Virus record (IMG/VR): IMGVR_UViG_3300032285_004008
Source of the DNA: a virus
Direction: 5' to 3' (one strand)
Length of the DNA stretch: 64,000 nt
Shown here: piece after piece, positions 22,838-39,405 of the stretch
How positions within the stretch are numbered: the first letter of the stretch is position 1
Layout: each line of letters opens with the position of its first letter
Notes under the pieces: model-generated
What the model saw: only the letters and a program-made list of their open reading frames with translations
What the model was told of the DNA's origin: nothing
Database searches by the model: none
Translations under genes and position numbers: made by a program

Positions 22838-23952
22838 TTAGCGACCTACCTTTCAGAAGTGAATACCTTAGTACTCGGTCGTTTATTGTCTTGGTGTTAG
22901 ACATTATCATTTTCAGTTGTATTGTCACAGTGCGCGAAAAGCACCTTTTGGCTTTTATTGCCTAAGGTGCTTGTCGTCTTAATAGTTTAGCACTAGTTTA
23001 CGGTGCGTTGTCAAATTTTTAAGAAAAAACTGTCTTTTTCAGTGATTATTTGGGGGTAGGGGCGTTTATTATTTTGGCTCGTATGGTAAGGTTCGGACGA
23101 ATTTTTTGAAAATTTGTGGAGCTGGATTTTATAAATGGGGGGTCTTCAGGATTGGCATATTTGTATTAAGGGGGGTATATGGTATACTAGGCACTAACTG
23201 CTTTTGGGGTGCGAGACGGCAGTCGTTGTTTGGGGAGGTGTCCAGATTTGTTTCCTAACGGCAAGGGGGTCTTGCTTTTTTGGGCTGACTTCAAACTTCA
23301 AACAAAGACTAAGGCTCTTGTCTAGTTTCAAAGCAGACTAGACAACCAAGCCCAGCAGCCTTGCTCAAAACTGAGTCTAAGAATAGACACTGAAACTGTC
23401 TCATTCTTGGGCAGTTGTCATCTCATCTATTTCTCTAGGCAGAGGGTTCGGGAACTGATTACCTGAGGGAACTGAAACTAATCAAGAAAACACTTAGATA
23501 CTCAGACAGCCTGCGGAGCACTCGGCAAGCAGTCAGGAGTTGTCTAATGTTGCTGGGTTGAATTGCCAGTTATCAACCTGCGGGCTAGTTGCCACATTCA
23601 ACCCAGTCAAAGAATCTCAGGGGATTTACCTAAGGTCAGTCCGCGCCAAAGGTGCGCATTTGAATCTGCCTGCGTCACTAGCACCGACAAAGTTGCTTGA
23701 TGTTATTCCATACATTGATGGGCGAGCAGTGAAGGTTGTGGTGACTTTTAGTGCACTCAACTTTCTATGAACCGAGTTATGTTGAATTGGATGTGCGGAG
23801 ATCCGCCGTGTCATTCGCCGTGTAGCTGGCAACTACCCAGCTCTCTATTTGTATTTATTTTTTCTAGGAATGTCCCTCGCCCACGCACCCACGCAGGCAA
23901 AAGAAAAACCCCCAGCCCGAAGGCTGGAGGTTTGCCGTGTAAGGCTTAGAGG

Positions 23953-24180
23953 CTACAAAGCGTAGCCGCTAAAGTCCCCACGCATGACGCGGTCAATCGC
24001 GTCTACGCAAGGCTGGCAGAAGTCCATGAAAAGGGCTTCCGCAGGGAACGAGCCGTCGCAACGCTCGCATAGGGTTTCGCCCTCTAGGGCAGGAGCGACA
24101 GGCACGCACTCGCGAGCGTGGTTGTCGCCTGAGATGTGCCACTGGTGGCACGCCTCGCAACGAAGGTGAGTTCTTGACAT
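23953..24180 (-). CDS. Small Zn-finger protein (cassette gene)
   Basis: Three CxxC motifs; AGGGG SD; own promoter and terminator. Confidence 0.65.
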   Translation of the reverse strand: MSRTHLRCEACHQWHISGDNHARECVPVAPALEGETLCERCDGSFPAEALFMDFCQPCVDAIDRVMRGDFSGYAL

Positions 24181-24223
24181 CTGAGTCCCCTAACTTCAAG
24201 CAACCTTTTTGCTTGATAGTTCA

Positions 24224-24251
24224 AGCATACCAACAAACTGAAAAAAGTCAA
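24224..24251 (-). promoter_or_regulatory. SigmaA-type early promoter
   Basis: TTGACT-N16-TATGCT. Confidence 0.75.
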
Positions 24252-24386
24252 GCGAACAAGATCGATCTTTCTTGTCGCACTGAAGTCCACAGAAAAAATA
24301 AATACACTCGCCACTACGCCAAACTTCCAACGAACAAAAAGAAAACCCCCGCCAGCGAACTGGCGAGGGCTTTCGTTTGAACTTTA

Positions 24387-24548
24387 CTAAATAGTGCGGA
24401 AGGTAAAGGTTCGACCATCAGTCATCAACTGCTTGGTTGCGTCAATGATTTCAATCGCACGCTTGACCGTGTGAGCCTCATACACAGGCTGACCAACAAT
24501 AGTGCCATCTGCCTCGTAGACAGTAATTTCAATTCCAGTAAAACGCAT
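24387..24548 (-). CDS. Small hypothetical protein (cassette gene)
   Basis: 53 aa MRFTGIEITVYEADG..., below the ORF cutoff; AAAGGG SD. Confidence 0.6.
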   Translation of the reverse strand: MRFTGIEITVYEADGTIVGQPVYEAHTVKRAIEIIDATKQLMTDGRTFTFRTI

Positions 24549-24602
24549 TTGGTTATTCCCTTTCGTAGCCCTCAGTCCCCTTGACTTCCTGACTACATAA
24601 GT

Positions 24603-24631
24603 AGTCTACCCCAGTCCTGCGACAAAAGCAA
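24603..24631 (-). promoter_or_regulatory. SigmaA-type early promoter
   Basis: TTGCTT-N17-TAGACT. Confidence 0.7.
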
Positions 24632-24765
24632 ATCGCCTCGCCACGCGAGGGGAACCCATAGAAAAAATAAATACAGCGAGGCAGCAAAAAAAAAAAAAAA
24701 ACGAACAACGAACCAGACAAAAGAAAGCCCCCTGCCTTTCGGCAGAGGGTCTTTGAACTTTTAGG

Positions 24766-24990
24766 CTACTCGCCAATAACCTTGTCTAGAAAGTTATTTA
24801 CCTGAGTTGCGAAAGTGAAAAAGACTGCGCCAACGCCAGCGATTAGCCAACCATTCGACCACGCCTCATTCACCGTGATACCTGCGCCAGCACCAAGTCC
24901 AACTAATACTGCGTAGCCAAGCACACAAGCACTAGCAACGAATGGCACAGCAACAACTGCGATTACTGCTCTACGAACTACAAACTTCAC
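24766..24990 (-). CDS. Small two-TM membrane protein (cassette gene)
   Basis: GTG start with AAGGGG SD; promoter TTGACT-N16-TATGCT. Confidence 0.6.
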   Translation of the reverse strand: MKFVVRRAVIAVVAVPFVASACVLGYAVLVGLGAGAGITVNEAWSNGWLIAGVGAVFFTFATQVNNFLDKVIGE

Positions 24991-25201
24991 TTTGAACCCC
25001 TTTTCTATCAAGCCCTTTGCTTGATACTTCAAGCATAGCAACCCTCAACCATAAGTCAAGACTTCAACACAAACTTTTTTCTGCGTCTCGAAAAACGGAG
25101 AAAAAATAAATACAACCAGGCGACGCACGCATCACCAAACTTTCAACGAAAAAACCCCCGCCGAAGCGGGGGCTAGTTCTGCCGTGTTATGAGTTATGGG
25201 C

Positions 25202-25378
25202 TTAGTAGTTCTCATTCACCCAATCGTAGAGTTCCTGAAAGTTATCTGCCTTAGAAACCTGCCACATAAAATCTTTATCTTCTAATAGCAAGTTGTATTC
25301 GACAGTTGTATTTGCCGAAACATCCCCAACGATAATGCGAATGTCTAGCGTTGAAAGCAATGAACCAATAGCAACCAT
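25202..25378 (-). CDS. Small acidic hypothetical protein (cassette gene)
   Basis: 58 aa MVAIGSLLSTLDIRII..., below the ORF cutoff; AAGGGGG SD. Confidence 0.6.
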   Translation of the reverse strand: MVAIGSLLSTLDIRIIVGDVSANTTVEYNLLLEDKDFMWQVSKADNFQELYDWVNENY

Positions 25379-25788
25379 TTTGGTTGCCCCCTTTCTTGTT
25401 GATAAAACAATGCTATCAACTACCTACGACATTCTTCGCACGAACCTTCCCGTGTTATGGCAGCCCAGAGAAAAAATAAATACAGACGCAGGGTCAAAAA
25501 AAATTAGCGTTCTAACTTCAAACCAACCCACAAACAAAAAACCGCGAGCGCGAAAGGAATGACTGGAACAAAAAGATTAGGGTAGCCAATGGCAAATCCC
25601 ATTAGCCAACCAAAACCAAAACCAACTGCCAAGCCATAGAAAATAATGGCGAACTCTTTAGGAACTCTCACGCTTTGAAGCCTCTCGTCTAGCCGTGTAA
25701 GACGCATAGTTTGAATGCTGAAAAACTTGAAACGCAACTCGGCTAATGCCAAGCCAAAACTTATGCTTGAGCAAATAAACCTCACGCA

Positions 25789-26037
25789 TTACGCACCTGC
25801 TCTGTCTAGGAATACTTCATACAACTTAGCACGCAGACGGCTTAGGTTGCGCTCTGCCCTCTCGCTTGAGCCAATGAGATACATACCAGCAAGGGTCTTT
25901 ATTTCCTCGTTGCGATAGCACTCTGCCCAAATCGCAGACTTAGTGTGAATTGAATACTGGTCCTCGCCACCAGCAAGGCGGAACACTTCCTCATAGGCGA
26001 ACTCTGCCCTTGTGTCCTTTTGAACTGTCTTTAGCAC
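25789..26037 (-). CDS. Hypothetical protein (cassette gene)
   Basis: GTG start with AAGGGG SD; promoter TTGCTT-N17-TAAACT. Confidence 0.55.
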   Translation of the reverse strand: MLKTVQKDTRAEFAYEEVFRLAGGEDQYSIHTKSAIWAECYRNEEIKTLAGMYLIGSSERAERNLSRLRAKLYEVFLDRAGA

Positions 26038-26222
26038 TTGATACCCCTTTCGAACTCCACTCTGGAACTCATACCTTGAGTTTACCCCTCGACACCAAAT
26101 AAAGCAAGCAAGCAAGTCGCCGTGTTTAGATGTGGCAAGAAAAAATAAATACACTCGGCTTTCAAAAAAAAAACGGCAAGACAAAACCCCCGAGCCGAAG
26201 CCCGAGGGTCTGCCTCTCCTGC

Positions 26223-26546
26223 CTAAAGGGTCTTTAGGTAGTCATACTCGGTTGAGCGTAGAGTTGCCTCAAACGCCTCTGGAAAGTTTGCCTTCATTAG
26301 TTCTCGGTCAAAGTGAGTATTTGAGCCGTGAACAACACGAACGGCAACTACGCCCTCAACGATACCAGCCTGAGCCTCGCCCAAAGCCTCACGCAAAACT
26401 GCCTCTGCCTTAGCCTTGAGAGCCTTAGCCTTTGCCTCTGCTGCCTTTGCCTTGTTGAATGCTGCTAGTGCCTTTACTGCCTTTGCTGAAAGTTCTACAC
26501 CCTCAACTGCCTTGTTGCTCTTTGCTACTACAACTGCGTTAGCCAT
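26223..26546 (-). CDS. Coiled-coil hypothetical protein, paralog of 32539..32910
   Basis: MANAVVVAK start with SD; FDRELMK..FPE motif. Confidence 0.65.
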   Translation of the reverse strand: MANAVVVAKSNKAVEGVELSAKAVKALAAFNKAKAAEAKAKALKAKAEAVLREALGEAQAGIVEGVVAVRVVHGSNTHFDRELMKANFPEAFEATLRSTEYDYLKTL

Positions 26547-26824
26547 TTGGCTACCCCTTATCTTTTCTACCAGCCTTGTTGCTGATGTATTCAGCATACA
26601 AGCAAGCCACGACATTTGTCAAATCATTTCACCAGCGAGTTGAAAATCGTAGAAAAAATAAATACAGCCGGAAAACCAACTTCCAACGAGCAAAAAATAA
26701 CCCCGCCGAAGCGGGGTCATTCTTTTTGAAACTTAGACGAGCCGTGTAATCATCGTTGTAATAATCGCAATCGCAAACCACACGAACGCAACCACACAGG
26801 CAATCCCATCTATCTTTTTGGTGC

Positions 26825-27028
26825 TCACTTGACAACCACCCACTCCATAGCAACTCGAAGCAAGTTGTTGTAGTCCCCCGCCATTGACTCGGCTAGGTAG
26901 TTTGAAATCTCGTCTTTGTCTACCCCAGCCTTTTTCAAAGCACTCTGGACAGCGCCCATAATTGCGAACGCATTGCCATCACGCCCAACCAGTTGAACCT
27001 TGACATTTGGATACTTCACATCTGCCAT
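26825..27028 (-). CDS. Conserved small phage protein
   Basis: VQLVGRDGNAF...AL..AG...GDY..LL motif common in phages. Confidence 0.7.
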   Translation of the reverse strand: MADVKYPNVKVQLVGRDGNAFAIMGAVQSALKKAGVDKDEISNYLAESMAGDYNNLLRVAMEWVVVK

Positions 27029-27208
27029 TTTGAACCCCTTTTCTATTGACACTCTGCCAATACCAAAAGACTACCCCAAACCAGGGACAACTTCAAACGA
27101 ATGTTGCCCGTGTTCCTGGTGTGCCAAGAAAAAATAAATACGCCTCGACGCAAAAAAAAACGACGCAAAAAAAGAGGCTAGGTTTCCCTAGCCTCTCCTC
27201 TTTTGTCT

Positions 27209-27559
27209 TTAGTCCTCTAGCGCCATCAAGGTTTCCATTGACTTAGCCAAGTTCTTGATAAGGCTAATCTCTTCTTCGCCTAGCCCTAGAGTGTCGCCAT
27301 TCTCGTCAGTTCCACCCGTGAAGACAACTGAACCATGAATGGCATACTGTCCACCAATAGTTCCAAAAAACGCACTGGCAATTGGGTTTGTGTCTGGCTC
27401 GCTGCGAAGTAGAAACTCCTCGTTCACCCACATGGTCATGTTCTCGGTTAGGTCAATCGCCTCAATCCAGCCATCAACTCCAGCCTGTAGTTCCTTTAGT
27501 GAGATACCAGTTTCAGTAATCTCTGAGTTTGAATTTACAATCAAACCAATCTTGCTCAT
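27209..27559 (-). CDS. DUF3846-like protein
   Basis: LKELQ..V.G.IE...MWVNEE...N..AS...I.G.VV..G..DENG. Confidence 0.7.
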   Translation of the reverse strand: MSKIGLIVNSNSEITETGISLKELQAGVDGWIEAIDLTENMTMWVNEEFLLRSEPDTNPIASAFFGTIGGQYAIHGSVVFTGGTDENGDTLGLGEEEISLIKNLAKSMETLMALED

Positions 27560-27743
27560 TTGTTCCCCTTCTAACCCAACCTTTGGGTTATGTAATAAGC
27601 CTACTACTACCCACCGACATTTCTAACCAAGTTTCGTTTGTTGTTTTGAAGACGCAAGAAAAAATAAATACACCTAGACGCACGCACATCTCACGAGCAA
27701 AAAAATTGCCCCGTGTTTCCACGAGGCAACTTCTTTTCGTTTG

Positions 27744-27947
27744 TTAGACGAGTTTAGACATCTGCTGAATGTTCTCGTTCGCCTTTGTAAGTAAAAGGTT
27801 TACTGACTCCATTACAGTTGCCGCTAGTGCTAGATTCCCCTGCGCTACTAGGTCGCTGACGACACCAGTAAGCAAGTTTGCTGACGCTACATAATCAGTA
27901 GCCGTGTAGAGTTTGTCCTCTACATTCTTCGTTAGGCTATCTGCCAT
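27744..27947 (-). CDS. Small helical hypothetical protein
   Basis: GGGAG SD; own promoter and terminator. Confidence 0.6.
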   Translation of the reverse strand: MADSLTKNVEDKLYTATDYVASANLLTGVVSDLVAQGNLALAATVMESVNLLLTKANENIQQMSKLV

Positions 27948-28198
27948 AACTCCCTCTCTGTTAGCGATTTGCTAACTACTAAAACTCTACTTCCACCCAC
28001 TGACATTTTTATCATTCAAGTTCGCCTATTTCCAAAAAGTGTAGAAAAAATAAATACACATAGCGCAGAAAAAACTTCAAACAAAAAACAAAAAACCCGA
28101 TAGCAACTTCGCTATCGGGTCTTTCGGAGAAAGAAATGAGGGGGCATTTCCTTTATCTCTGTCGCTTGCCAAAGGGGGATAAGGCAAGCGAGTTCTAT

Positions 28199-28444
28199 TT
28201 ACTTTTCTGGGTCGTAGTCTGCCCAATAATCCTCTGCCAGTTCCTCTCGGCTTGGCAGTTCTTTTTCTAGGCTTTTTCCGCAGTCTGGACATTCAGCATA
28301 GGCGTTGTAGCCATAGTCGTCTGTCTGACCATCAAGTTCAAACTCTTTGTCGCACACCGAGCAATAGAAATCACCCGTGTAATCCTCCGAGTAGATACCT
28401 GACCCCATCATTGAGCGACCATCACCATAAGCACCTAGCGACAT
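28199..28444 (-). CDS. Acidic Zn-ribbon protein
   Basis: CSVC...CPDC; D/E-rich. Confidence 0.6.
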   Translation of the reverse strand: MSLGAYGDGRSMMGSGIYSEDYTGDFYCSVCDKEFELDGQTDDYGYNAYAECPDCGKSLEKELPSREELAEDYWADYDPEK

Positions 28445-28620
28445 TAGTGGTTCATCTCAAATCCAGCAGAATACTCAACCCCAGTAGGAGTTGGGTCGTA
28501 GCACTCCTCACAACTGCCAAATTGTGCGTAGTGTTCGCTTACTAGCGGATTCTTGGTTGTAATTTCACTTTCGCAGTCTGGACAAACCCCTAGCCCAGTT
28601 GCGTTCTTTGTTCCTGACAT
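28444..28620 (-). CDS. Small Zn-ribbon protein
   Basis: CPDC...CEEC; GGAGG SD before the ATG at 28620. Confidence 0.6.
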   Translation of the reverse strand: MSGTKNATGLGVCPDCESEITTKNPLVSEHYAQFGSCEECYDPTPTGVEYSAGFEMNH

Positions 28621-28889
28621 TTCTGCCTCCCTTTGACAACCCCTTGTTGTCATACTTCAACCTTACACAACTCCCACGACATTCGCAACCCCCCGCGAGC
28701 GCGAGTCTAGAAAAAATAAATACACTTCCAACGAACCATCTGGGCAAAAGAAAAACCCGCCTTTCGGCGGGCTTCCTCGTTTCAGTTAGCGATTACGCAA
28801 GGGCTTCCGTGTTCTAAACTCTCGTATTGACCAAGCCAGTCCAGCCAAGCCAGCGATAATCAGAATCAAACCAACGATAAGTGCGAGCA

Positions 28890-29243
28890 TTAGTAGTCCT
28901 CGTCTTCCTCGTCATCTGAAGAAAACTCGTCTTCCCACTCGTCTTCCTCTTCATCACCCTCGCCTTGACCTATCAAGGTCTCGAACCCAGCATTCGGGTC
29001 TTCAAGATTAGTTTCGACTGCGTTCACAAAACGCAACCCACACGAATCCCCATACCATTGCTTTACAGTTTCCAGCATCTCGCTAGGCGACATTTCATCA
29101 GCCGTGATTAGCGGGTCGTAGTCAAGTTCACGCATTTCCTGAACCTGCGCCTCGTCCATCAGCAAGTAAATCTTGTGGCAAGTATCCCAAGCAATTGCCT
29201 TTGCCTCGTCAATACGAGCCTCCACCAAACTAAAATCAACCAC
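28890..29243 (-). CDS. Highly acidic hypothetical protein
   Basis: WDTCHKIY, SCGLRF; poly-D/E tail. Confidence 0.65.
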   Translation of the reverse strand: MVDFSLVEARIDEAKAIAWDTCHKIYLLMDEAQVQEMRELDYDPLITADEMSPSEMLETVKQWYGDSCGLRFVNAVETNLEDPNAGFETLIGQGEGDEEEDEWEDEFSSDDEEDEDY

Positions 29244-29443
29244 TTTACTACCCCTTTTCTGTAGCCAGCCTTTGACTACATCAGTAGTCTATGCCCAACC
29301 TCGGACATTTGTAAACATTTGCGTTTCTCTGCGTGGCGTCTGTAGAAAAAATAAATACACTCGCAACCGGCGGCGCAACTTCGCACGAAACAAAAAAAGT
29401 CTGCCAGTCTTTCGACCAACAGACTTTCTTCGAGCCGTGTTTA

Positions 29444-29842
29444 TTATTCTTCTTCTTGCGCCTTACTGAAAGTGAACAATGCGCCCAACTCGTCATGGCT
29501 TGAACGAACGCAAGTCAAGTCTTTGCCTTCAAGTTTGTAGCGTAGAGTAAAGTCGCCATTCAAGGTTAGGCAGTCAATAGCCTCGCTTGCTCGAATGTTT
29601 GTCCAGCCAGCAACCTTATTCCAATTCATGTTTCCACTGAACACATAGACAACCGTGTCCTCATCCCAACCATTAGCCTCAAGCCAAGGTTGAAGAATAG
29701 TGTATTTGAAGTTGTCCTTCTCATCTTCCCAGCAACCGAAACATTCGTTGCTAGGCGATGAAGTGTCGTCATCTTCGTTGTAGTCTTCGCAGATACAGTC
29801 TGAAGTAATCTCAAACTTTACTGCCTCAGTTGTTATAGTCAT
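29444..29842 (-). CDS. Acidic hypothetical protein
   Basis: CxC...CxxC, SHDE; AAGGGG SD. Confidence 0.65.
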   Translation of the reverse strand: MTITTEAVKFEITSDCICEDYNEDDDTSSPSNECFGCWEDEKDNFKYTILQPWLEANGWDEDTVVYVFSGNMNWNKVAGWTNIRASEAIDCLTLNGDFTLRYKLEGKDLTCVRSSHDELGALFTFSKAQEEE

Positions 29843-30047
29843 TTGTTTCCCCTTTTCAGTGGCTTGTCTTTTCCACTAACTAAAGTTTATCGGCAGCCTC
29901 CGACATTTTCAACTTCCAACGAACAAACTCATCAAAAGTGTCGCCAGCCGCGAGAAAAAATAAATACACGCTGCGACGCATGCTTCGAGTCAAAAAAGAA
30001 AAACCCCGCACAAGGCGGGGCTTCTTTTTATTTATGTTTAGCCGTGT

Positions 30048-30344
30048 TTACTCTTCGTCTGCCCAAAACTCTTCTTCGTCAATAATCCAAGACTCCAAGT
30101 GATGACCTTCGACGATAGCCCAAGCAGGCGCTGAACTCTCTCCACGCCAAGTCGAGTTGTCTGGAAGTTTGAAGTGAGCATTTATGTCTCCCCCTTCGTT
30201 GAGGTGGCTGATAACATCTCTACAAATTGGCACCATTGTCTTTGGCACTGGCGGGAAGTGATTTCCCCTTAGGTGCCATTCAAGTTGCTCCTCTAATGAA
30301 AGCCCAGCCGTGTTGGCCATCTCCACTGCCTGCATTCTTCCCAT
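30048..30344 (-). CDS. Hypothetical protein
   Basis: LEWHLRGNHFPPVP...HHLESW; AAAGGGA SD. Confidence 0.6.
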   Translation of the reverse strand: MGRMQAVEMANTAGLSLEEQLEWHLRGNHFPPVPKTMVPICRDVISHLNEGGDINAHFKLPDNSTWRGESSAPAWAIVEGHHLESWIIDEEEFWADEE

Positions 30345-30512
30345 TCTGTCCCTTTCGTCTTTTGTAGTTAGTTCAACTACTAAGTTCACGATACCAGGTG
30401 CTTGCAAGTATTTTATTCCGCGAGCGCGAAGAGTCGTCAAACCCAGAGAAAAAATAAATACACTTGACGCTAAAAGAAAAACCCCGCGAGCGCGGGGCTA
30501 ATCTTTGTGTCT

Positions 30513-30794
30513 TTATGCGTGGCAGTCGCAGGTGCAGTCCTCCAACACCAACGCACGCTTACGCTCTTTGAGGTTAGTGCGCTCTACTATGAGGGCTAAC
30601 CACTCCGTGTTTAGTTCACGCATCTTGCGTGCCCAGTCTGTTAGGGGGTCTACTGAAATACCTAGCACAACGCTAGTCCCTTGCGCCTTAGCAAGTTCCA
30701 ACCCAGACTGCGACTGCTCTTGTCTAATCTCTGCTAGACGCTCGCCAATCTCTGCTAGACGCTCTTTGATTTCCTTGATTTGAGTAATGTCCAT
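30513..30794 (-). CDS. Coiled-coil protein with C-terminal CTCDCH
   Basis: Promoter TTGACT-N17-TAGACT at 30861-30833. Confidence 0.6.
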   Translation of the reverse strand: MDITQIKEIKERLAEIGERLAEIRQEQSQSGLELAKAQGTSVVLGISVDPLTDWARKMRELNTEWLALIVERTNLKERKRALVLEDCTCDCHA

Positions 30795-31034
30795 TACTGC
30801 CTTTCCGAGCCAAACCTTTTGACTACATTTGTAGTCTACCATACTCCACCTACAAAGTCAAATCTAAAAACCTACGCCGTGTTAGTTTGTAGAAAAAATA
30901 AATACACTTTGCGAGAAAAAAATAAAATCCAGATAAAACGAAACGACAGTCATTGGGGGAATGACTGTCGTTCGTTTGAGATAAGGGTTAGGGGGTAATC
31001 CTTATCTCTTTTAGTTAGGAGTAATCTCGACTAA

Positions 31035-31370: not shown

Positions 31371-31565
31371 TTTTGTTGCCCCTTTTCTGTAAGCCACTTG
31401 CCTACATAAATAATTTACTACATACCCGCGACAAATACAAATCAAAACCCCGTGTTCGTTTGAAGTGTCTCTACACTGCGAGAAAAAATAAATACACATA
31501 CACACAAAAAAATGGCAAAAGAAAACGGGCTACCATTTCGATAGCCCGTGCTCTTTCGTTTGAAG

Positions 31566-31700
31566 TTAGCCACCACGCAACGCAGTCGCAAACCAGTCGT
31601 AAAACTCATTCTCACATTTCTCACAAATAGGGTGAACCTGCGTAATGTCCTCGACTTCAATCTCTGCGTCGCACTGATAGCATTCGGTCTTTACAGCCAT
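31566..31700 (-). CDS. Small Zn-finger protein
   Basis: 44 aa MAVKTECYQC...HPICEKC, below the ORF cutoff. Confidence 0.5.
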   Translation of the reverse strand: MAVKTECYQCDAEIEVEDITQVHPICEKCENEFYDWFATALRGG

Positions 31701-31703
31701 TTC

Positions 31704-31910
31704 CTATTCCTTTGACAGAGGGACATTGTTTAGAATCTCTAAGGCTTGGTAATACAAATCCATTTCCTCATCAAACTCTTCCCATTCGGAAGTTTCCGTG
31801 TTCCACACTTGTTCTTCCTTGCCGAACCTTGCCGAGTAAGTGTCGTCATCTATGAACGGCACGCCCTCCTCTAAATCAACTGTCACTACAAAGTGAACTT
31901 GCTTTGCCAT
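31704..31910 (-). CDS. Small acidic protein
   Basis: MAKQVHFVV... with AAAGGA SD. Confidence 0.6.
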   Translation of the reverse strand: MAKQVHFVVTVDLEEGVPFIDDDTYSARFGKEEQVWNTETSEWEEFDEEMDLYYQALEILNNVPLSKE

Positions 31911-32066
31911 TGCGTTAGTCCTTTCCTTGACTATCTCCATCTTATTCCGCGAGCGCGACATTACGCCAACCATTTCTATTCGAGTTGAAGTTGATAGAAA
32001 AAATAAATACATCTGCGAGTCAAAAAAAAACGCTGACGATTTCTCGCCAGCGTTCGTTTGAAGTTC

Positions 32067-32375
32067 TTACAAAACTGATTCAGAATAATTTTCGATTCGA
32101 TTCAGCAAATCGTGTGCCGTGTCTGGAATCTGTATGCCACCCATAATGAGAGACGCACAATAAATAATCTCGGAGGGTTCTACTCCCATTCCCTCATAAG
32201 CAACTTTGTCTAAAAGTTCCGAACTAAGTTCCTTTGACCCTCGCTCAACTTCGGACAAATACCCAAGTGCGACAGACGCTTGCCCTGAAACCTGTCTTAG
32301 CGTTAGCCCCTGAGCCTGACGCTCATCACGAAGGGCTTGCCCCAACGCCACTCTAAACAAAACTCGTTTACTCAT
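32067..32375 (-). CDS. ClgR-like XRE/HTH transcriptional regulator
   Basis: [37 protein letters not shown] matches the actinobacterial ClgR HTH. Probably leaderless (TATCAT 6 nt upstream of the ATG). Confidence 0.8.
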
Positions 32376-32538
32376 ACTCAAATGATAGTTGCCGTGTTCA
32401 ACTTTGTAAACAACATTCGTTTGAAGTTTGTTCTTCGCTAGAAAAAATAAATACAAACCCCGTGCGAAAAACCCCGTGCGAAAAAAAAACCGCCAGCGAG
32501 AGGGGGGTCTCGCTGACGGCTTTTCTGGACTTATCTGT

Positions 32539-32910
32539 TTAGATTATGTCCACCCTTAGGGTTGCTTTACCAGCACCCTTTGGAATCGTGTATTCCTGTT
32601 TGAGCAAGACATACAACTCTGGCTGGGTCTTTTCAAGGCGTTCCCAGTCAAACGATTCGCTTGACGGAATAACCTTGACGCTAATCAAACGCTTTCCCTT
32701 AGCGTCCGTGCCAACTAGGTCGGTGAGAGTTTCCCCAACGAAGTCAAGAATCTCGGTGCGTGCCGAATCCCCTAGTGCCTTTGCCTGCTTGGCAAGGTTG
32801 CGTGATTCACGCAAGGCTTTCACCTTTGCCTGAACCTTTGGTGGCAAGACAACAATGTTGTCCTGTGTGGTGCTGGTGATAGTTGCTTTCGCAACCTTTG
32901 TGTTCGCCAT
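32539..32910 (-). CDS. Hypothetical protein, paralog of 26223..26546
   Basis: MANTKVAK...FDWERL...PELY. Confidence 0.65.
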
Positions 32911-33078
32911 TTGATTTCCTTTCGTAGAGTATCACTGGGCTTACAAGTTCCACATTACCTTAGTCTGCCGACATTACGCAAATCCTATCGTGGTCGTGTC
33001 GCCGTGTTCGTAGAAAAAATAAATACAACCCGCCCTGAAAAAAAGACTGGGCTTTCGCCCAGCCTTTCGTTTGAAGTT

Positions 33079-33939
33079 CTACTCCTCCGTGTTGTCCTCA
33101 TACTTCGGGAAAAGGTGTTCCCCTGTGTTCTCGTCTACAACTCGGAAACTATCTGCGTCCTCTGGTTCGAGGTTGTCTAGTCCGTCTTGGGCAAGTTCCC
33201 ACGCTTGCTCTGCGTTCTGGGCTTTGACCACATAACGGCGTTCGACTACAACTACGAAGTCCCTGTCCTCACGAGGGCAGTCCTCATAGAGGTCGTCTTC
33301 ATCACCGCTTTCGCACGCCCAGCAATCACGCCCTAGTTCCACATAGTCTGCGTGGCTATCGGGTATGTCCCACTCTTTCGTCATAATCAGCGACTTAGTT
33401 GGCTTGCCGTCTTCATCTACATCATCTGCGTCTGACGAAGTAAACTCCGCGCCCCAGCCCTGCTCTTCCTCCGAATAGAAGTCGAATGAAAGTTCTGGGT
33501 GCTGTCTGACTATTGCGTGGAATACTGGCTCTGGTATTGACCAAGCCGTTTGGAATGCGTAGTTCAGAAAAGGTGCTTTGTCGTCCGTGTTGTCCGTGAA
33601 GTCCACATCACTTGCGTCCCACTTAGTTCCCCACTCACGAACATTCCAGTCATACCAGCCGTTAGAAGAAAACTTCATTGAGTAAGCCATCTTATCTTCG
33701 ACAGACCAGTCGTTGTATCCGTCTGGCTTGTAGTCGCTTGCCCCGAAGTAGAGAGCCTTGTCCTCTGGCTCAATGAAGTTCCAAAATGAGAGTTCGCTCT
33801 TGTCGCCCTCCGTGTAAGTGAGCGAGCCGTCCTCCGTGTTCAGTCCGTCTGGTCGAGTTTTGCTCGCCTTATCACGGAACGCAATCAAGTCCTCTTTCGA
33901 GCCATTGACATTCATTGTGTTGTAGACCCAGTTTGGCAT
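33079..33939 (-). CDS. DUF1281/YubB (Api92)-like ferredoxin-fold protein
   Basis: MPNW..N, WYDWN...WGTKWD, F.TAW motifs. Confidence 0.75.
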   Translation of the reverse strand: MPNWVYNTMNVNGSKEDLIAFRDKASKTRPDGLNTEDGSLTYTEGDKSELSFWNFIEPEDKALYFGASDYKPDGYNDWSVEDKMAYSMKFSSNGWYDWNVREWGTKWDASDVDFTDNTDDKAPFLNYAFQTAWSIPEPVFHAIVRQHPELSFDFYSEEEQGWGAEFTSSDADDVDEDGKPTKSLIMTKEWDIPDSHADYVELGRDCWACESGDEDDLYEDCPREDRDFVVVVERRYVVKAQNAEQAWELAQDGLDNLEPEDADSFRVVDENTGEHLFPKYEDNTEE

Positions 33940-33941
33940 TT

Positions 33942-34238
33942 CTACCACTCCCCTTTCTTGATGTCCATTTTGTGCTTTTCAATCATCTCGTTCACAGTTT
34001 CACCTGCGAACAACTTGACTACGCCGAGCCGTGTTTCCAACTCCTCTATGCCCAACTTGCGAGCAAGGATTTCCGCTAGTGCCACAGCACGATACATAGT
34101 TGGGTCGCAGTATCCCTCTTGGCAATACTCCTCGACCATTACACCCAAAGTTGCTAGTGCGATACCAGCAATGTCCTCTGGCTCTAGGTCAGCGTGGTTC
34201 AACTCGTCCATTCGCTCACCTGAACACTTTACGCACAT
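33942..34238 (-). CDS. Hypothetical protein
   Basis: AAGGGG SD; promoter TTGTAT-N17-TAAAGT. Confidence 0.6.
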   Translation of the reverse strand: MCVKCSGERMDELNHADLEPEDIAGIALATLGVMVEEYCQEGYCDPTMYRAVALAEILARKLGIEELETRLGVVKLFAGETVNEMIEKHKMDIKKGEW

Positions 34239-34542
34239 CTCAATCCCCTTTCATTTGGATTAGTTCCACTTTACCCTAGTCCTACGACAAATACAAATAC
34301 CTCGTTGGAAGTGTCGTGGCGTTTCGTAGAAAAAATAAATACACACACTCGAAAAAAAAAACGCAACGCAACTTTTCATGAGTTCGTTTGAAGTTCACCA
34401 GACTCGGCAACAACTGGTGCGCACTTACACATGGCAAAGAAAACCCCCGACAATCCGTTAGGACTATCGGGGGTTCTCTGTTATCACTAACGGAGTGATG
34501 AAAGGACGAACAAACGCACTCCGTTAGCAAACTTGCTGGCGA

Positions 34543-36303
34543 CTAAACGCTTGCTTTCAAAAGTGCGTCCGTTGCGCTCTTACCAATCGCAGACGCAATC
34601 TCGCTGGTCGCTAGATTTCCTAGCACCACGCCGTTTCCCTTGACCAGTCTCTCGCCCATTCCTTGACCGCACTCTTTCGGTGTAATCCAAAGCAGAGCCA
34701 CGCCGTTCTCTTTACAGAGGCGAGCCGTCTCAATCGCACGCTCGGTCTCTGTGCCTGTGTAATGTCCGTCCGATACAACAACCAACATACGCACGCCAGT
34801 TCCAGTTAGCAGACCAAGTGCGCCGTCCAATGCTCGGAACGCCTTGCCAAAAACTTCCGTTCCGTCTGGTGCGGAGTAGACCGAAACCTTATCCAACTTC
34901 TGACCAACCTTGAGAGTTGGGAACACATCTTGTCCGTAGTAGACCATAGCGGTCTTGGCTTGAATACGGCGACCTGCCTCTGACAAAACCCAAGCCGTAG
35001 TCGCCATGCTTTTCATGGCAGACGACATAGAACCGCTAATGTCCACCATTACGCCAATGGTCAAAGTCGGGTCGTCTGTGTGCTTGCGTGTCTTGTGTCG
35101 CCACGCAGGGTTCAAGTCTCGCACGCCCTTTGCCTCTAGTGCCTTGTTCTGAACAAGCACTCGTGATTTCAGTCTGCCCTTTGGTTCGACAGACTTCACG
35201 ATAGTTTCCGAACGCTCACGATACTTTGCCTTTTCCAACATCTGCGCAAGTTTGACTGCGCTGGCTCGTTCGTGTCCAGTTGGGTCTCGTTGCTCTTGAA
35301 GTCGTGAGTGAGACGAAGTTCCCTCGCTACCACTTGACTTGCTAAAGACTTCCTGTGCGTCTCGCTTGCTCTCGCTTTGTCGCTTGCTCTCGCTCTGACG
35401 CTTTGAGACTTCCTCTTTCCATTCCTCTTGGGTCTGCTGGTCGCCCAAGTCTTTCGCAACGGAAGTTCCAGTCTCACCTGCGTCCTCGCTCAAAGCGTCA
35501 AGCAAGTCCTGAATGATTTGAGGAACGCCAGAACCACCCTCACCCTGTTCGCCCTCTGGGTCTGCCTCTTTCAAAAGGTCATTCCACTTTTGAGCAAGTT
35601 CGATACCACGAGCAACTTGGCTCGTGTGAAGTTGCTGAAACTCCACCCAAACTTTGCGAAGTTCATTGAACAAGTCTAACCCAATGACCTCAAGAACTTT
35701 GTCGAAAGTTGCTTGAACATCTGCCAACTTCAAAACACCTGCGTCCACTCGTGCGAGTGCCAACGCTGATACATGAGCGCACGCACGAACCTCTGTCAAG
35801 TTGTCAAGTGCCTCGTCTGTCAAGTCCTCTAGTGCCAAGTTCAAAGCAGACGCACGCAAGAACAACTGGTTCTCTGGCATTAGAACAACGCCCTTGCGTT
35901 CGATACGACTTTCGTCTAGCAACTGAAAAGTCCTGAAAGTTTTTTCGTCCATGCTTTCAAGCGCAGACATTTCCCAAACTGAAAAACGAGCGTGAAGTGC
36001 CTCGTGATAAATAACCCCTGTTGCCTCTGCGAAGTCATACTGGACTTCTCGCTCTGAAAAGTCGCCAACCATTTCTGGAGTGGTCGCAAGACCAAACGCC
36101 CCACCAATGTTGATTTCGATTTCAGCAGTCGTGTTGATAAAGCAAGCAATAGCCATGCCCATACCTGCGTCCTCGCCTGCGTAAACTGCCAAGTCATTTC
36201 GACCTGACCAAGTGTTTACAACCTGCCCAATCTGTGCGCAAGTTTTCAGCCACTCGTTAGGCGTGGTGCTGGTGCGTGTTGCTACTCGTGATAAGTGAGA
36301 CAT
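34543..36303 (-). CDS. VWA-domain protein with HExxH (MoxR partner)
   Basis: HEALH; MIDAS DISGSM, GT, VSDG. ATG at 36303 with SD. Confidence 0.85.
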   Translation of the reverse strand: MSHLSRVATRTSTTPNEWLKTCAQIGQVVNTWSGRNDLAVYAGEDAGMGMAIACFINTTAEIEINIGGAFGLATTPEMVGDFSEREVQYDFAEATGVIYHEALHARFSVWEMSALESMDEKTFRTFQLLDESRIERKGVVLMPENQLFLRASALNLALEDLTDEALDNLTEVRACAHVSALALARVDAGVLKLADVQATFDKVLEVIGLDLFNELRKVWVEFQQLHTSQVARGIELAQKWNDLLKEADPEGEQGEGGSGVPQIIQDLLDALSEDAGETGTSVAKDLGDQQTQEEWKEEVSKRQSESKRQSESKRDAQEVFSKSSGSEGTSSHSRLQEQRDPTGHERASAVKLAQMLEKAKYRERSETIVKSVEPKGRLKSRVLVQNKALEAKGVRDLNPAWRHKTRKHTDDPTLTIGVMVDISGSMSSAMKSMATTAWVLSEAGRRIQAKTAMVYYGQDVFPTLKVGQKLDKVSVYSAPDGTEVFGKAFRALDGALGLLTGTGVRMLVVVSDGHYTGTETERAIETARLCKENGVALLWITPKECGQGMGERLVKGNGVVLGNLATSEIASAIGKSATDALLKASV

Positions 36304-36424
36304 TTGATTTCGTCCTTTCGTTGTCTCTTGATTTGTTGCTAGTTCCAACCTTACCAGATTTGGCAGGGAACGCAAGTTCATTTACAAACTGCGTTCCCCA
36401 CCTTTTCTAGTAGGAACGGAACTA

Positions 36425-37453
36425 CTAGATTTTGGCTGGCAGAACTGCCTCGCCAAAAACTCGTGTGAACACATCTGCGACAACAGACCTGTCAATCTCT
36501 GGTGCGCTGGCAAGCAAGTTGGCAACTGCCCACTTAGAACCAAACAACTCGCTTAGGTCTCGGAACGCAAGCAACTCTCGCATTTGAGGCGACCATGAAG
36601 TTTCGCCATTCGCCTGTTTCTTTGCCAAGTTCTGTGAGGCTGAAACTGCTGTCGCAGGAACGCCCAACTTCTTTGCCAATGCCCAGTCAGTAGTCATTTC
36701 GACCTGAACGCTGAAACGAGAGAGCAACGCCTCTGAAAGTCGAACTCCGGGTGCGTTAGGGTTGGTCGCACCAATCACGAAAAATCCCTCTTGAGCCTTG
36801 ATAGTTCCTCGCTCTGGGTTCTGGGTAATCGTGATTTCCTTGCGTCCGTCCATAAGACCATAGACCGCAGACAAGACCTTTGGGTCAATCAGACCAATCT
36901 CGTCAATGAGCAAAACTTTTCCTTGCTCGGCAGACTTGACCAATGCGCCGTCCACCCATTCAAAACCGCCACTTGGAGTTTGAACATAGCCACCAATGAA
37001 GTCAGCAAGTTCGGTGTCGCCAGAACCAAGAATGGTGTAAAGTTCGTCAGGGAACGCACCCTCAACGAGTGCTGTCTTTCCAGTTCCAGGTGCGCCATAG
37101 AGCAAGACATACTGACCTGCGCCTCGTGCTTTGCGCAAGACTTCAATGTCTGTGTGTTCTCCCCATGAGCGAGAGTAGTAATCCTGACCATTAGGTCGTG
37201 CGTATTTCTCAACGCCCTCTAATGCCTCAACATTTACCACTTTGTTCGCCTTTACTTTTGGAGTGCCAGTTCCAACTTTAGCACGCACATTCGCACGAGC
37301 AGTCGTTGGCATTAGCGCACTTAGTTCTGCTGGAACTTTGGTTGCGTCCATGTCTTGAATGGCAACACCATAGACAAGTTTCGATAGGTCTTGGTAAAGG
37401 TCGTCCACATTTAGTTCGACCTCTGGAACTGCTGGAGTAATGAGAGTAGTCAT
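36425..37453 (-). CDS. MoxR/CbbQ/CobS-like AAA+ ATPase
   Basis: GAPGTGKT, LLIDE, ATNP, LSEALLSRF. Confidence 0.9.
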   Translation of the reverse strand: MTTLITPAVPEVELNVDDLYQDLSKLVYGVAIQDMDATKVPAELSALMPTTARANVRAKVGTGTPKVKANKVVNVEALEGVEKYARPNGQDYYSRSWGEHTDIEVLRKARGAGQYVLLYGAPGTGKTALVEGAFPDELYTILGSGDTELADFIGGYVQTPSGGFEWVDGALVKSAEQGKVLLIDEIGLIDPKVLSAVYGLMDGRKEITITQNPERGTIKAQEGFFVIGATNPNAPGVRLSEALLSRFSVQVEMTTDWALAKKLGVPATAVSASQNLAKKQANGETSWSPQMRELLAFRDLSELFGSKWAVANLLASAPEIDRSVVADVFTRVFGEAVLPAKI

Positions 37454-37477
37454 TTTATTTTCCGTCCTTTTCTATGA

Positions 37478-37996
37478 CTATGCTTTTGAGTTGTATGGCT
37501 TTTCAGGAAAGCCAAGTGCTAGGCGAGTTTTCTGAATACGGCGAAGTGCTGACGCTGGTGCTTTCCAATCGCCGATTTCGGTGAAGTCCATGTCTGTAAG
37601 TTCAAACACGATAGGCTTTGCGCCACGCAAGTTAGTCAGACCATACTTCATCTGACGCTTGAGAACACGCTCTACCTGCTCTGACATAGCAGACGCTTTT
37701 GCCTCTGCTGTGGTCAGTTCCTTATCAGGTCGAATGAAACTGATACGCCATTGCTTGCGTGGAGACCAATCGCTAATAGTGCGAGTGCTAATAGCCATTG
37801 CGACATCTTGACCCTTTTCGTTCTTTCCCTCTGGGGTAATCAAGATTTGAGTTGCTTGGTCGCCATTGGCATTTGGGAGTTCAAGGTAGATACCCATTCC
37901 CATTACCTTTGGCTTGTTGCTAACTTCACCAAGCGCAACTGCGCTGGCTAGTTCTGGGGTTAGTTCCCCGAATGTTCCCATTAGGTCTGGGTTCAT
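37478..37996 (-). CDS. Hypothetical protein
   Basis: AAAGGA SD; first gene of the AAA/VWA operon. Confidence 0.6.
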   Translation of the reverse strand: MNPDLMGTFGELTPELASAVALGEVSNKPKVMGMGIYLELPNANGDQATQILITPEGKNEKGQDVAMAISTRTISDWSPRKQWRISFIRPDKELTTAEAKASAMSEQVERVLKRQMKYGLTNLRGAKPIVFELTDMDFTEIGDWKAPASALRRIQKTRLALGFPEKPYNSKA

Positions 37997-38103
37997 TTTT
38001 TTCCGTCCTTTACTTTAGGTTTGTTGGATTTTTCCAACAAGTCAAACTTAGCAGGGTTCGTTGGAAGTTGTCAAGTTCTGCTGTATTTATTTTTCTGGCG
38101 TGT

Positions 38104-38640
38104 CTAGAAGTGAAAATCAACTGGGATTAGGAACTGCTTTTCAGGACTAGAGGCAACTCGCTTTGTGAAGTTGTCTAGTGAACCTGTCCAATAGTCCAAG
38201 TCGTAGATACCACTATCAGGTGTCCAGTCGTCATTCAGAAGTTGTGCCAACTTCTTAGTTCCCCACAACTCCATGTCTAGTTTGTTGTTGTATGGGTCGT
38301 AAGAATAACTAGATAGGTCTAGTGCCTGTGGCTGGAGAAGTCTGATTTCCTCGTAGCGATACTCCAGAAAACGAGTAATCACTTGTTCCGCGAGCGCGGG
38401 GTCGTCTGAATAGCGCAGATAGTTTGGGTTGGTATCTGTGTTGGTCATTACACCCTCCTCGTTGTATGACCCAAAGACTTCACCAGACCAGCGACCAGCA
38501 AAGTTCAAAGTGATAGCCCCTGACTGGTCTGCGTTGTGCCAGTCAGACCATTTTGGCTCGCCCTCTAGTTTGCGTGCTACTTCATCAAAAGCCTGTTCTG
38601 GTGTCTCTGCCTCTACTAGCAGGATTTGGCAAGTGTGCAT
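38104..38640 (-). CDS. Hypothetical protein
   Basis: WSDW...GRWSG...VDFH phage-type motif. Confidence 0.65.
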   Translation of the reverse strand: MHTCQILLVEAETPEQAFDEVARKLEGEPKWSDWHNADQSGAITLNFAGRWSGEVFGSYNEEGVMTNTDTNPNYLRYSDDPALAEQVITRFLEYRYEEIRLLQPQALDLSSYSYDPYNNKLDMELWGTKKLAQLLNDDWTPDSGIYDLDYWTGSLDNFTKRVASSPEKQFLIPVDFHF

Positions 38641-38790
38641 TTTCGTCCTTTCGATTTGCCTAGTTCCAAACTTACAACGAACCTATGACAAAATACAAGT
38701 TGTCAAACGAGCGTGTTTCGTAGAAAAAATAAATACAACTAGGGCAAAGAAAAAAGCCCCTCGTGTTTGAGAGGCTTTCGTTCTTTGTTG

Positions 38791-39303
38791 TTATGCGTAG
38801 AGTTCCTCACGCAAGAGGTAGCAGGTTTTACAGATTGGGAGGCTTAGGCTCTTACTTCCTCGCCAAGTCTTTCTTTCCTCGAACTCGTGGACGCCCTCTG
38901 CGAAGTGTTTCGCTAGTTCAATCGTGTTTGCGTTGTAGCGAAGTTTGTTCCACATTTCCATACTCCATTCAGAAGTATCAAGAACCAGCATTTCCTCTGC
39001 GTTTCCGAAACTAGACCCAGAGAAGTAAGTCTTATTTCTTGGTTGGAGGTTTAGTGGAACTGCGATAAAAGCCCTGCCAGCAATCGTGTTCTCTTTGGCA
39101 TACTTCTTTGCTCGTGCCTCTGCTAGAGGTAGTCGTGAGTGGACACTCCAAATGCTCTCGAACACCCCATCTTTGAGCATTACAACTCCAGCAGTAATGT
39201 CTGACCTATCTGACCATGTGTAGAGCATTGTTCCAGCCCAGTCGGAGACAGGCATACCTACTGGTAGTTCAGGTATGTATTTGAAAGTGTTGTATTCAGC
39301 CAT
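38791..39303 (-). CDS. Hypothetical protein
   Basis: AGGAG SD; TTGACA-type promoter. Confidence 0.6.
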   Translation of the reverse strand: MAEYNTFKYIPELPVGMPVSDWAGTMLYTWSDRSDITAGVVMLKDGVFESIWSVHSRLPLAEARAKKYAKENTIAGRAFIAVPLNLQPRNKTYFSGSSFGNAEEMLVLDTSEWSMEMWNKLRYNANTIELAKHFAEGVHEFEERKTWRGSKSLSLPICKTCYLLREELYA

Positions 39304-39405
39304 AAATAACTCCTGTTTGTTCGTTTGGAGTCAACTTTACCAGAGTAGATAAGTAGTGTCAAATCTTTTTGGCTTGGTGTGTTGCGCTAGAAAAAATAAA
39401 TACAA

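Follow-up and report, generated by a model that had tools for sequence, protein, structure and literature searches.

What kind of element is a 16-bp word that heads every cassette in an array of mostly small genes in a viral genome, and that scarcely varies while the DNA on either side of it does? The window analysed here (the whole stretch of 64,000 nucleotides from IMG/VR virus record IMGVR_UViG_3300032285_004008) carries an array of 21 cassettes on its minus strand, and the only long identity common to all of them is the 16-bp box TGTATTTATTTTTTCT, which is separate from both promoter and terminator. The array is probably, in a judgement held with moderate confidence, one that resembles the promoter-early stem-loop (PeSL) cassettes of T4-type phages, in which the box would be an upstream promoter site on one face of the helix for a sequence-specific factor, and also a crossover point. 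The direct evidence comprises the anatomy of the cassettes, the invariance of the box under divergence, its phasing to the promoter, its concerted variants in different lineages, and the cassette junctions within it.

On the minus strand, co-oriented with the genes, the box occurs in 20 exact copies and one copy with a single mismatch (27127, C at position 1), all between 24291 and 39404. A scan of the 64-kb window allowing up to three mismatches gives 25 matches against 0.99 expected, a number reached by none of 100 shuffles, and the rest of the window outside the array has no copies. Around the direct copies, the conserved word stops abruptly at the edges of the box. Two inverted copies accompany the direct ones: an exact box just past the last terminator, with no promoter following it on either strand, which is an orphan copy that marks the end of the array; and a variant initially scored as having three mismatches, which lies inside cassette 2, 7 nt upstream of the internal promoter (TTGACA-18-TAAGTT) of a gene for a protein of 172 amino acids (aa). 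The latter is kept at the same place in the related locus L179, two cassettes of the related locus L183 also have inverted boxes, and inverted copies still fill the slot between terminator and promoter. Exact-box scans of viral and bacterial contigs gave scattered single matches in AT-rich taxa among the matches listed, and no bacterial genome with multiple copies among them, which says nothing for or against a host regulon. The features of the array are as follows.

23850..39404, minus strand: whole array of 21 co-oriented box-promoter-gene-terminator cassettes
38738..39404, minus strand: cassette 1; box 39389-39404; -35 39357-39362 (TTGACA); -10 39334-39339 (TAAAGT); gene 39303-38791 (170 aa)
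34344..38737, minus strand: cassette 2; box 38722-38737; -35 38693-38698; -10 38669-38674; genes, all on the minus strand, 38640-38104 (178 aa), 37996-37478 (172 aa), 37453-36425 (AAA/MoxR-like) and 36303-34543 (VWA/CobT-like, 586 aa)
33028..34343, minus strand: cassette 3; box 34328-34343; -35 34291-34296; -10 34268-34273; genes 34238-33942 (98 aa) and 33939-33079 (286 aa, DUF1281_C)
32456..33027, minus strand: cassette 4; box 33012-33027; -35 32976-32981; -10 32952-32957; gene 32910-32539 (123 aa, basic)
32012..32455, minus strand: cassette 5; box 32440-32455; -35 32405-32410 (TTTACA); -10 32382-32387 (TATCAT); Xre-type helix-turn-helix (HTH) gene 32375-32067 (102 aa)
31497..32011, minus strand: cassette 6; box 31996-32011; -35 31964-31969; -10 31939-31944; genes 31910-31704 (68 aa) and 31700-31566 (44 aa, zinc ribbon)
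30907..31496, minus strand: cassette 7; box 31481-31496; -35 31435-31440; -10 31412-31417; gene 31370-31035 (111 aa)
30463..30906, minus strand: cassette 8; box 30891-30906; -35 30856-30861 (TTGACT); -10 30833-30838 (TAGACT); gene 30794-30513 (93 aa)
29969..30462, minus strand: cassette 9; box 30447-30462; -35 30435-30440 (6 nt past the box); -10 30410-30415; gene 30344-30048 (98 aa)
29360..29968, minus strand: cassette 10; box 29953-29968; -35 29907-29912; -10 29884-29889; gene 29842-29444 (132 aa)
28725..29359, minus strand: cassette 11; box 29344-29359; -35 29310-29315; -10 29286-29291; gene 29243-28890 (117 aa, very acidic)
28059..28724, minus strand: cassette 12; box 28709-28724; -35 28683-28688; -10 28660-28665; genes 28620-28444 (58 aa) and 28444-28199 (81 aa), both zinc-ribbon-like
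27673..28058, minus strand: cassette 13; box 28043-28058; weak -35 28007-28012; -10 27984-27989; gene 27947-27744 (67 aa)
27143..27672, minus strand: cassette 14; box 27657-27672; -35 27620-27625; -10 27598-27603; gene 27559-27209 (116 aa, DUF3846)
26667..27142, minus strand: cassette 15; box 27127-27142 (the one-mismatch copy); -35 27091-27096; -10 27068-27073; gene 27028-26825 (67 aa)
26154..26666, minus strand: cassette 16; box 26651-26666; -35 26617-26622 (TTGACA); -10 26593-26598; gene 26546-26223 (107 aa, basic)
25485..26153, minus strand: cassette 17; box 26138-26153; -35 26102-26107; -10 26079-26084; genes 26037-25789 (82 aa) and 25785-25504 (93 aa, membrane-like)
25115..25484, minus strand: cassette 18; box 25469-25484; weak -35 25434-25439; -10 25410-25415; gene 25378-25202 (58 aa)
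24676..25114, minus strand: cassette 19; box 25099-25114; -35 25054-25059 (TTGACT); -10 25032-25037 (TATGCT); gene 24990-24766 (74 aa, membrane-like)
24307..24675, minus strand: cassette 20; box 24660-24675; -35 24626-24631; -10 24603-24608; gene 24548-24387 (53 aa)
23900..24306, minus strand: cassette 21; box 24291-24306; -35 24246-24251 (TTGACT); -10 24224-24229 (TATGCT); gene 24180-23953 (75 aa, 7 Cys); terminator 23933-23906
23850..23865, plus strand: inverted exact box, just past the last terminator
38082..38096, plus strand: inverted box variant with a run of five T instead of six, inside cassette 2

A hairpin with a T-run lies upstream of 20 of the 21 boxes (18 with dG of -13.7 to -27.7), the exception being the box of cassette 1, which abuts the stop codon of gene 39406-39984; terminator-like sites number 49, compared with 19.6+-4.6 in shuffles. 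Within 75 nt downstream of 14 of the 21 boxes there is a match to TTGnnn-16..18-TAnnnT (1.2+-1.1 in shuffles; none in the segments upstream of boxes and none antisense), and the remaining seven boxes are followed by promoters slightly off consensus. A scan for strict-consensus promoters shows no overall enrichment (17 versus 17.8), and its minus-strand matches in the array fall at the expected places. The predicted 5' leader hairpins are more stable than those of shuffles (mean z -2.0, p 1.6e-5), and a general survey finds a Shine-Dalgarno (SD) sequence and a start codon in every cassette, cassette 5 being seemingly leaderless. Promoters and hairpins differ among cassettes, and only pieces of 14-27 nt are common to a few pairs. 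An earlier note on this DNA had described the unit as terminator, box, promoter, leader hairpin, SD and genes, an anatomy that the shuffle-controlled counts of terminators, promoters and hairpins uphold, and had counted 21 co-oriented and two inverted boxes, as are found here. Its estimate of a repeat every ~0.35-1.3 kb agrees with the inter-box spacing of 369-1316 bp but misses one unit of 4394 bp, and its figure of one or two small genes per unit fits most cassettes but not cassette 2, which has four larger genes and an internal promoter.

The distance between box and promoter is variable yet helically phased (~10.4 bp); neither this nor the lineage-specific concerted variation of the box was mentioned in the earlier note. 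In the window, the gap between the box and the -35 hexamer is 28-31 nt in 13 cassettes and 39-40 nt in four, and is also 26 (twice), 23, 20 and 6 nt. In a de-duplicated set of promoters pooled from four box-bearing lineages (n=48-60), the periodogram of this gap peaks at 10.25-10.5 bp (R 0.52-0.56; Rayleigh p ~1e-7; none of 5000 jittered controls as high), and the phase is identical in each of the four. The pattern was replicated in L307-L309, which were fetched later (n=33; peaks at 17-20, 27-31 and 37-42; R 0.68, p 3e-7). With the transcription start predicted 7 nt after the -10 hexamer, the centre of the box falls at -51.5, at -63.5, at -67.5 to -74.5 (15 cassettes) or at -81.5 to -83.5, that is, between -63 and -84 in 20 of the 21 cassettes and at -51.5 in one. 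The modelled centres sit at positions typical of face-of-helix upstream activator sites: CRP activates at class I positions -61.5, -71.5 and -82.5, and Fis site I at rrnB P1 is at -71. As at UP elements, class I sites and Fis sites, A/T-rich upstream DNA is presented on one helical face; the predicted centres mirror the class I and Fis positions and are spaced, as at class I sites, by integral helical turns upstream of the -35 hexamer, whereas the box, unlike CRP and Fis sites, is asymmetric. Together, the phasing and the inverted copies in promoter-upstream slots suggest that the box acts as DNA and in connection with the promoter, and tell against an RNA element or a roadblock.

Relatives were collected by anchoring on the VWA/CobT-like gene of the array. 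The earlier note had proposed a motif scan of the genome and its relatives; copies are confined to the array in the window, and the closer relatives all have a T-rich box in the same terminator-box-promoter layout, with none in the 7.5 kb upstream of the array. L179 and L180 (91-92% identity) have the identical box TGTATTTATTTTTTCT in 19 and 12-13 copies, respectively. The lineages differ, on the sequences compared, by concerted changes of the box: it is GGTATTCATTTTTTATC in L181, L182 and L306; TGTATTTATTTATTCTG in every copy in L183 and L184; ATTTTTCATTTTTTCCAGATA in L133 and L134; TGTATTTATTTTTTCC, ending in CC, in L307; GGTATTTATTTTTTCTG in L308; and [CT]GTATTTATTTTTTCT in L309. Within each genome (12-21 copies), the box is uniform, with no wobble between A and T and with the G/C positions at its edges also fixed, and the core GTATTTATTTTTTC persists across lineages down to 64% identity of the VWA protein. 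Where cassettes of the window have orthologues in L179/L180 (overall identity ~77-86%), identity reaches 99.2% in the box but drops to 64% in its 16-nt flanks, the lowest value of the whole conservation profile. Such sharp-edged identity between diverging flanks points to selection on exactly the bases of the box, not mere homogenisation. Tandem boxes 37-48 nt apart were also observed at the first promoter of the array in L183 (7553/7595), L307 (8101/8149) and L308 (7749/7786), followed by a near-consensus TTGACA-17-TAAAGT in L307 and L308 and by a weaker TTGAAA-17-TATCGT in L183; they may reflect cooperative binding at the entry to the array.

Distant relatives (44-49% identity, including the metagenome-assembled Actinomycetia phage DSL-LC01) have 10-19 copies of an invariant extended -10 promoter, the upstream part of which is lineage-specific (ACCTGATATAAT, CCAGAGTTTATATAAT or TCTAAAGATGTTATAAT), and no comparably repeated word was found in loci of 39-41% identity (L015-L017, L163 and L174). 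The comparison suggests that promoter 'dialects' run throughout this phage group. The extended -10 element heads small genes in L001 (DSL-LC01), L003-L012, L144, L159 and others; the 8-10 nt upstream of its hexamer read, by lineage, TCTAAAGATG-, ACC- or CCAGAGTT-, and the leader ACGACGAAAGGACA is constant. The paper describing DSL-LC01 makes no mention of promoters or repeats. The cultured Microbacterium phage Pumpernickel was considered as an experimental model and rejected, as it has no invariant element.

The earlier note had also supposed that cassettes are gained, lost and reordered through shared regulatory DNA, and had suggested a comparison of synteny; the relatives bear this out with indels, replacements and reorderings whose junctions lie in the box, and gene order is not fixed among them. 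A 396-bp one-gene cassette is all that breaks the colinearity of L133 and L134 (85% identity), and both of its alignment breakpoints are inside the box. Among the window, L179 and L180, several cassettes are present, absent or replaced, and in four instances one box of a genome aligns to two consecutive boxes of another. At the level of single bases, the window box at 30906, that of cassette 8, has the upstream flank of L179 box 12462 and the downstream flank of L179 box 13001, and is the junction of a cassette found in L179 and L180 but absent from the window. Of 41 internal breakpoints, from comparisons that partly share events, 17 lie between -25 and +35 relative to a box start in both genomes (p 1.3e-6 under a uniform null and 3.4e-4 under one confined to intergenic DNA). 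The window and L179 become homologous 4 nt ahead of the first box. Cassettes 2, 3, 5 and 7 are a core present in all box lineages, and the distal cassettes are fluid; order changes include C9 before C7 in L133, C12b and C15 ahead of C7 in L181, and C6b after C9 in L183.

The mechanism proposed is one of 21 autonomous units, each of which would be expressed from a host-sigma-type promoter through a 5' stabilising hairpin and an SD sequence, with one to four mostly ORFan genes and an intrinsic terminator. The box would be a DNA-level upstream promoter element on one helix face, one to four turns (mostly three) upstream of the -35 hexamer, and would most likely dock one sequence-specific protein that touches RNA polymerase (RNAP), or bends DNA towards it, in the manner of a class I activator or of Fis at rrnB P1. 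All cassettes would then be under one factor, in line with the single switch supposed in the earlier note, and its sign could be activation or shut-off; a common regulator is plausible given the box that they share. Homologous crossovers in the box would delete, insert, replace and reorder cassettes, and would occur there because the box is the only long identity common to all cassettes. We infer from this pattern that a protein binds the box and affects transcription, that timing is early, and what the cassette genes may do.

Several points weigh against this account. The reader protein was not found by searches of Pfam, PHROGs, PDB and Atlas or in a matrix of gene presence, and the only recognisable DNA-binding protein in the array is the Xre HTH protein of cassette 5. 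That protein was considered as the reader and rejected, its recognition helix being invariant while the box changes and the protein being present in L016, which has no box. The basic protein C4 was likewise rejected, being absent from L307-L309, which share the core of the box; it is the only basic protein specific to lineages with the T-rich box, and Atlas, PHROG and PDB searches with it were uninformative. As a target for a classical dimeric activator, a 16-bp, asymmetric, T-rich site would be unusual. About one quarter of the distances are off-phase (23, 26 and 33-36), the positions -52, -63, -73 and -83 rest on hexamer calls and predicted starts, the promoter model was tuned on sequences of this very kind, and cassettes of related genomes are not fully independent data points. 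Early timing is assigned by analogy only. Finally, the core ATTTATTTTTT fits the consensus of the distal UP subsite (-52), AWWWWWTTTTT (as quoted in PMC5658200), at 11 of 11 positions in the right orientation, so that RNAP could itself be the reader.

This last point belongs to an explanation that is unlikely but not negligible, in which host RNAP reads the box directly, through its alpha C-terminal domains, the curvature of the T-tract or both, so that the box would be an optimised far-upstream UP-like element with no dedicated factor. Helical phasing is what effects of the alpha C-terminal domain or of curvature require, and the persistence of the core to 64% identity of the VWA protein would be expected of a conserved reader such as RNAP. 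Against this, 20 of the 21 boxes are centred outside the range of -40 to -60, and recognition of UP elements is degenerate (W positions), whereas the 12-21 copies per genome show no wobble between A and T and have fixed G/C edges. The UP consensus is, moreover, broken in all copies at once by the variants of L181, L183 and L133, where a W position is taken by C or the T run contains an A. Compared with UP elements, the box varies far less, lies mostly too far upstream and is specific to phage lineages; its mostly -73 position, the lack of A/T wobble and the concerted, consensus-breaking variants argue for a dedicated sequence-specific protein rather than the alpha subunit of RNAP.

It is improbable that the box is a roadblock or insulator at which a phage protein stops read-through or silences the array in an orientation-dependent manner, as the L5 repressor does. 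The stoperators of cluster A mycobacteriophages (L5, Bxb1) are protein-read sites, and the L5 reader is a monomeric phage protein (PMC6550527, PMC9283540). Like the boxes, the stoperators are 20-30 asymmetric, intergenic sites of 13-16 bp, mostly in one orientation to transcription, with a lineage-specific consensus, and the box is a near-invariant, multi-copy site that always lies between a terminator and the next promoter, as a roadblock might. Stoperators are, in contrast, spread genome-wide in temperate phages, mostly not associated with promoters, and block elongation, whereas the boxes are confined to one 15.5-kb array, phased to promoters and nearly all behind an intrinsic terminator. 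The strong phasing would be superfluous for a roadblock, which could work in any helical register relative to the following -35 hexamer; the units are already insulated by strong intrinsic terminators; ahead of the first box there is neither a terminator nor a cassette to be insulated from; and family scans recognised no repressor or integrase in the window.

Also quite improbable is a box that is primarily a recombination signal with no role in transcription, whether a target of a recombinase or nuclease, a microhomology under concerted evolution or an address like the attC of integrons. Deletions and insertions from box to box, the enrichment of junctions, the change of all copies together in each lineage and the orphan inverted box at the end of the array are all in keeping with such a signal, but it leaves the helical phasing to the promoter unexplained. 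No lineage has a recognised recombinase beside its array; the flanks, which gene conversion alone ought to homogenise as well, are in fact the least conserved part; and ordinary homologous recombination at the longest stretch of identity, demonstrated for PeSLs, accounts for the junctions equally well.

An RNA-level element, in which the U-rich box would be a single-stranded processing site of the RNase E/J/Y type, or a protein site, that cuts polycistronic RNA into hairpin-protected monocistrons, is very unlikely. Such a site would suit the AU-rich, unstructured box, which is preceded by a 3' terminator hairpin and followed by the next unit, and hairpins at both transcript ends hint that RNA stability matters; but a box upstream of each promoter is transcribed by read-through only, phasing to the -35 hexamer is a property of DNA, the inverted copies (in L183 and at 38082 in the window) would give a different RNA, and no Rfam family matches. 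Least likely of all is that the box is itself the promoter, or part of one, for a phage-encoded or injected RNAP or sigma factor, with the sigma70-like hexamers secondary, since, for all that an invariant, co-oriented 16-bp word ahead of units resembles promoters of the T7 or N4 type and that the invariant element of more distant relatives is the promoter itself, nothing in the box resembles a -10 hexamer, it is specifically followed by good -35/-10 pairs, the start codon lies at distances from it that range over >30 nt in helical steps, an odd arrangement for a start site, and no RNAP or sigma factor was recognised in the scanned part of the window. Inspection also rejected the box as a sigma70 -10 or a T4-late-like element: it has no TAnnnT, and its reverse complement would fire antisense into the terminator.

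For the preferred reading, of a promoter-phased factor site at which cassettes also recombine, the closest described system by anatomy and by junctions in a shared motif is the PeSL, which the earlier note had already named as an analogue. PeSL cassettes are composites of terminator and promoter around ORFans (Arbiol et al. 2010, PMC2839356; Comeau et al. 2014, PMC4122927) and mediate deletions, insertions and mini-circles by recombination (PMC2839356; PMC4122927). The present array likewise has intergenic composites of a sigma70-like promoter and a stem-loop terminator, ORFans predicted to be autonomously expressed, junctions of indels and replacements in the shared motif, lineage 'dialects', and a hyperplastic, ORFan-rich region whose distal cassettes are variable and mostly without a family. 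It differs in that the identity shared by PeSLs consists of promoter, stem-loop and a generic AT-rich stretch, whereas the cassettes of this array differ in promoter and terminator and have in common a sharply bounded 16-bp box upstream of the -35 hexamer, in a phage unrelated to T4. The host-takeover module of SPO1 and the pre-early region of T5 are likewise groups of small early genes that lie near a genome end and are rich in strong promoters of host type and in terminators. To our knowledge, no separate, invariant and phased box ahead of every promoter is present in either; the timing and function of those genes have been demonstrated, whereas the array is known from its sequence.

The products of the cassettes are mostly ORFans that are small, acidic, Cys-rich or membrane-like, largely as the earlier note had described them (small acidic, zinc-finger or membrane proteins), the proteins of cassette 2 being larger. 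Those with a family are the AAA/MoxR-like and VWA/CobT-like pair, the DUF1281_C and DUF3846 proteins and the Xre HTH protein. A scan with the PADLOC defence library, which covered only four cassette proteins, found nothing; the host-takeover or anti-defence roles that the earlier note proposed for the genes are putative. The ATG of the HTH gene of cassette 5 comes 6 nt after the -10 hexamer TATCAT (starting 7 nt past it); its helix ALGYLSE[VI]ERG is invariant, with unusually apolar 'recognition' positions, and it has homologs in every box-bearing lineage (L179, L180, L181, L183, L133 and L307-L309). The proteins of cassette 4 (123 aa, isoelectric point 9.5) and cassette 16 (107 aa, isoelectric point 9.2) have in common a Lys/Ala-rich, coiled-coil-like N-terminal region and are paralog-like; for the former, PHROG gives a weak match to RecE-like exonuclease families, in their C-terminal part.

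Other short words recur around the cassettes. The 12-mer ACTTC[CA]AACGAA has 30 matches with at most one mismatch (0.7 expected) between 22271 and 48450, for example at 24323, 28724 and 29912 on the plus strand and at 31455, 32053, 33066, 34383 and 38057 on the minus strand, its orientation flipping near 30-31 kb. On the gene strand it lies directly past stop codons ahead of terminators or between box and -35 hexamer, and its inverted copies follow the terminator T-run and precede the box; the AACGACGAAAGGA leader of the distant relatives is similar to it. The hexamer ACACGG occurs 39 times on the minus strand and five times on the plus strand of the window, with 29 occurrences in the 15.5-kb array, often 3-25 nt past a box; it was rejected as a third positioned element, its distance to the box or to the -35 hexamer not being fixed. 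In addition, CGCGCTCGCGG recurs seven times on the gene strand between 23850 and 39404. In L181, the gene for single-stranded DNA-binding protein has a 155-bp duplication with 55-nt repeat flanks (L181 15409-15618 versus L182 5574-5628), the contigs being otherwise 100% identical; it is either an assembly artefact or a natural frameshifting variant.

The array is flanked upstream (>39.4 kb) by a block of oxygenase and transferase genes, and below 22.9 kb by a terminase-portal-head module. This 3' module is actinophage-like and on the minus strand, with PHROG and Pfam matches to terminase (20220-18820), portal (18150-16423) and major head protein (3827-1728). Identity of the portal is 70% with DSL-LC01, 60-65% with large Microbacterium phages and 47% with Arthrobacter phages, and the kin of portal, terminase and major head protein are DSL-LC01 and Microbacterium, Arthrobacter and Gordonia phages, not a T4-type myovirus. 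From this kinship, the source of the window, a freshwater phage, is taken to be a large uncultured member of an actinophage-related group; near-identical DNA was not found in cultured phages, nor was a cultured member bearing the box. Between the last terminator of the array and the next gene (22837-22202) are ~1.1 kb (22838-23905) with no convincing open reading frame, in which the sign of the GC skew flips, the orphan inverted box lies, and the 211-aa gene has a promoter without a box (TTGACA-17-TAAACT at ~23013-22985, minus strand). An Rfam scan gave two tRNAs only, with no family match for the box or for 22838-23905.

Arrays of ORFan cassettes hold the fast-evolving accessory genes of large phages, probably for host takeover or counter-defence, and the sole mechanistic model of cassette turnover known to us is from T4-type phages. 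Here unrelated, abundant, uncultured lake phages appear to follow the same logic with one sharply bounded word, separable from promoter and terminator, that is under strong purifying selection, phased to the promoter and available across lineages as a natural allelic series. The box could be used directly as bait for a new phage regulator of host RNAP, lends itself to testing face-of-helix control in what are probably actinobacterial hosts, and would be a simple marker for tracing cassette exchange in metagenomes. More tentatively, and with real doubt, the box may be the operator of a master regulator, encoded by the phage or delivered by the virion (one possibility being a factor injected together with the head protein), that co-evolves with it. 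If so, ~20 host-type promoters would be switched together from a fixed helical face, box dialects would set which co-infecting phages exchange cassettes, since crossovers need the same box, and a single 16-bp word would link regulation to gene flow.

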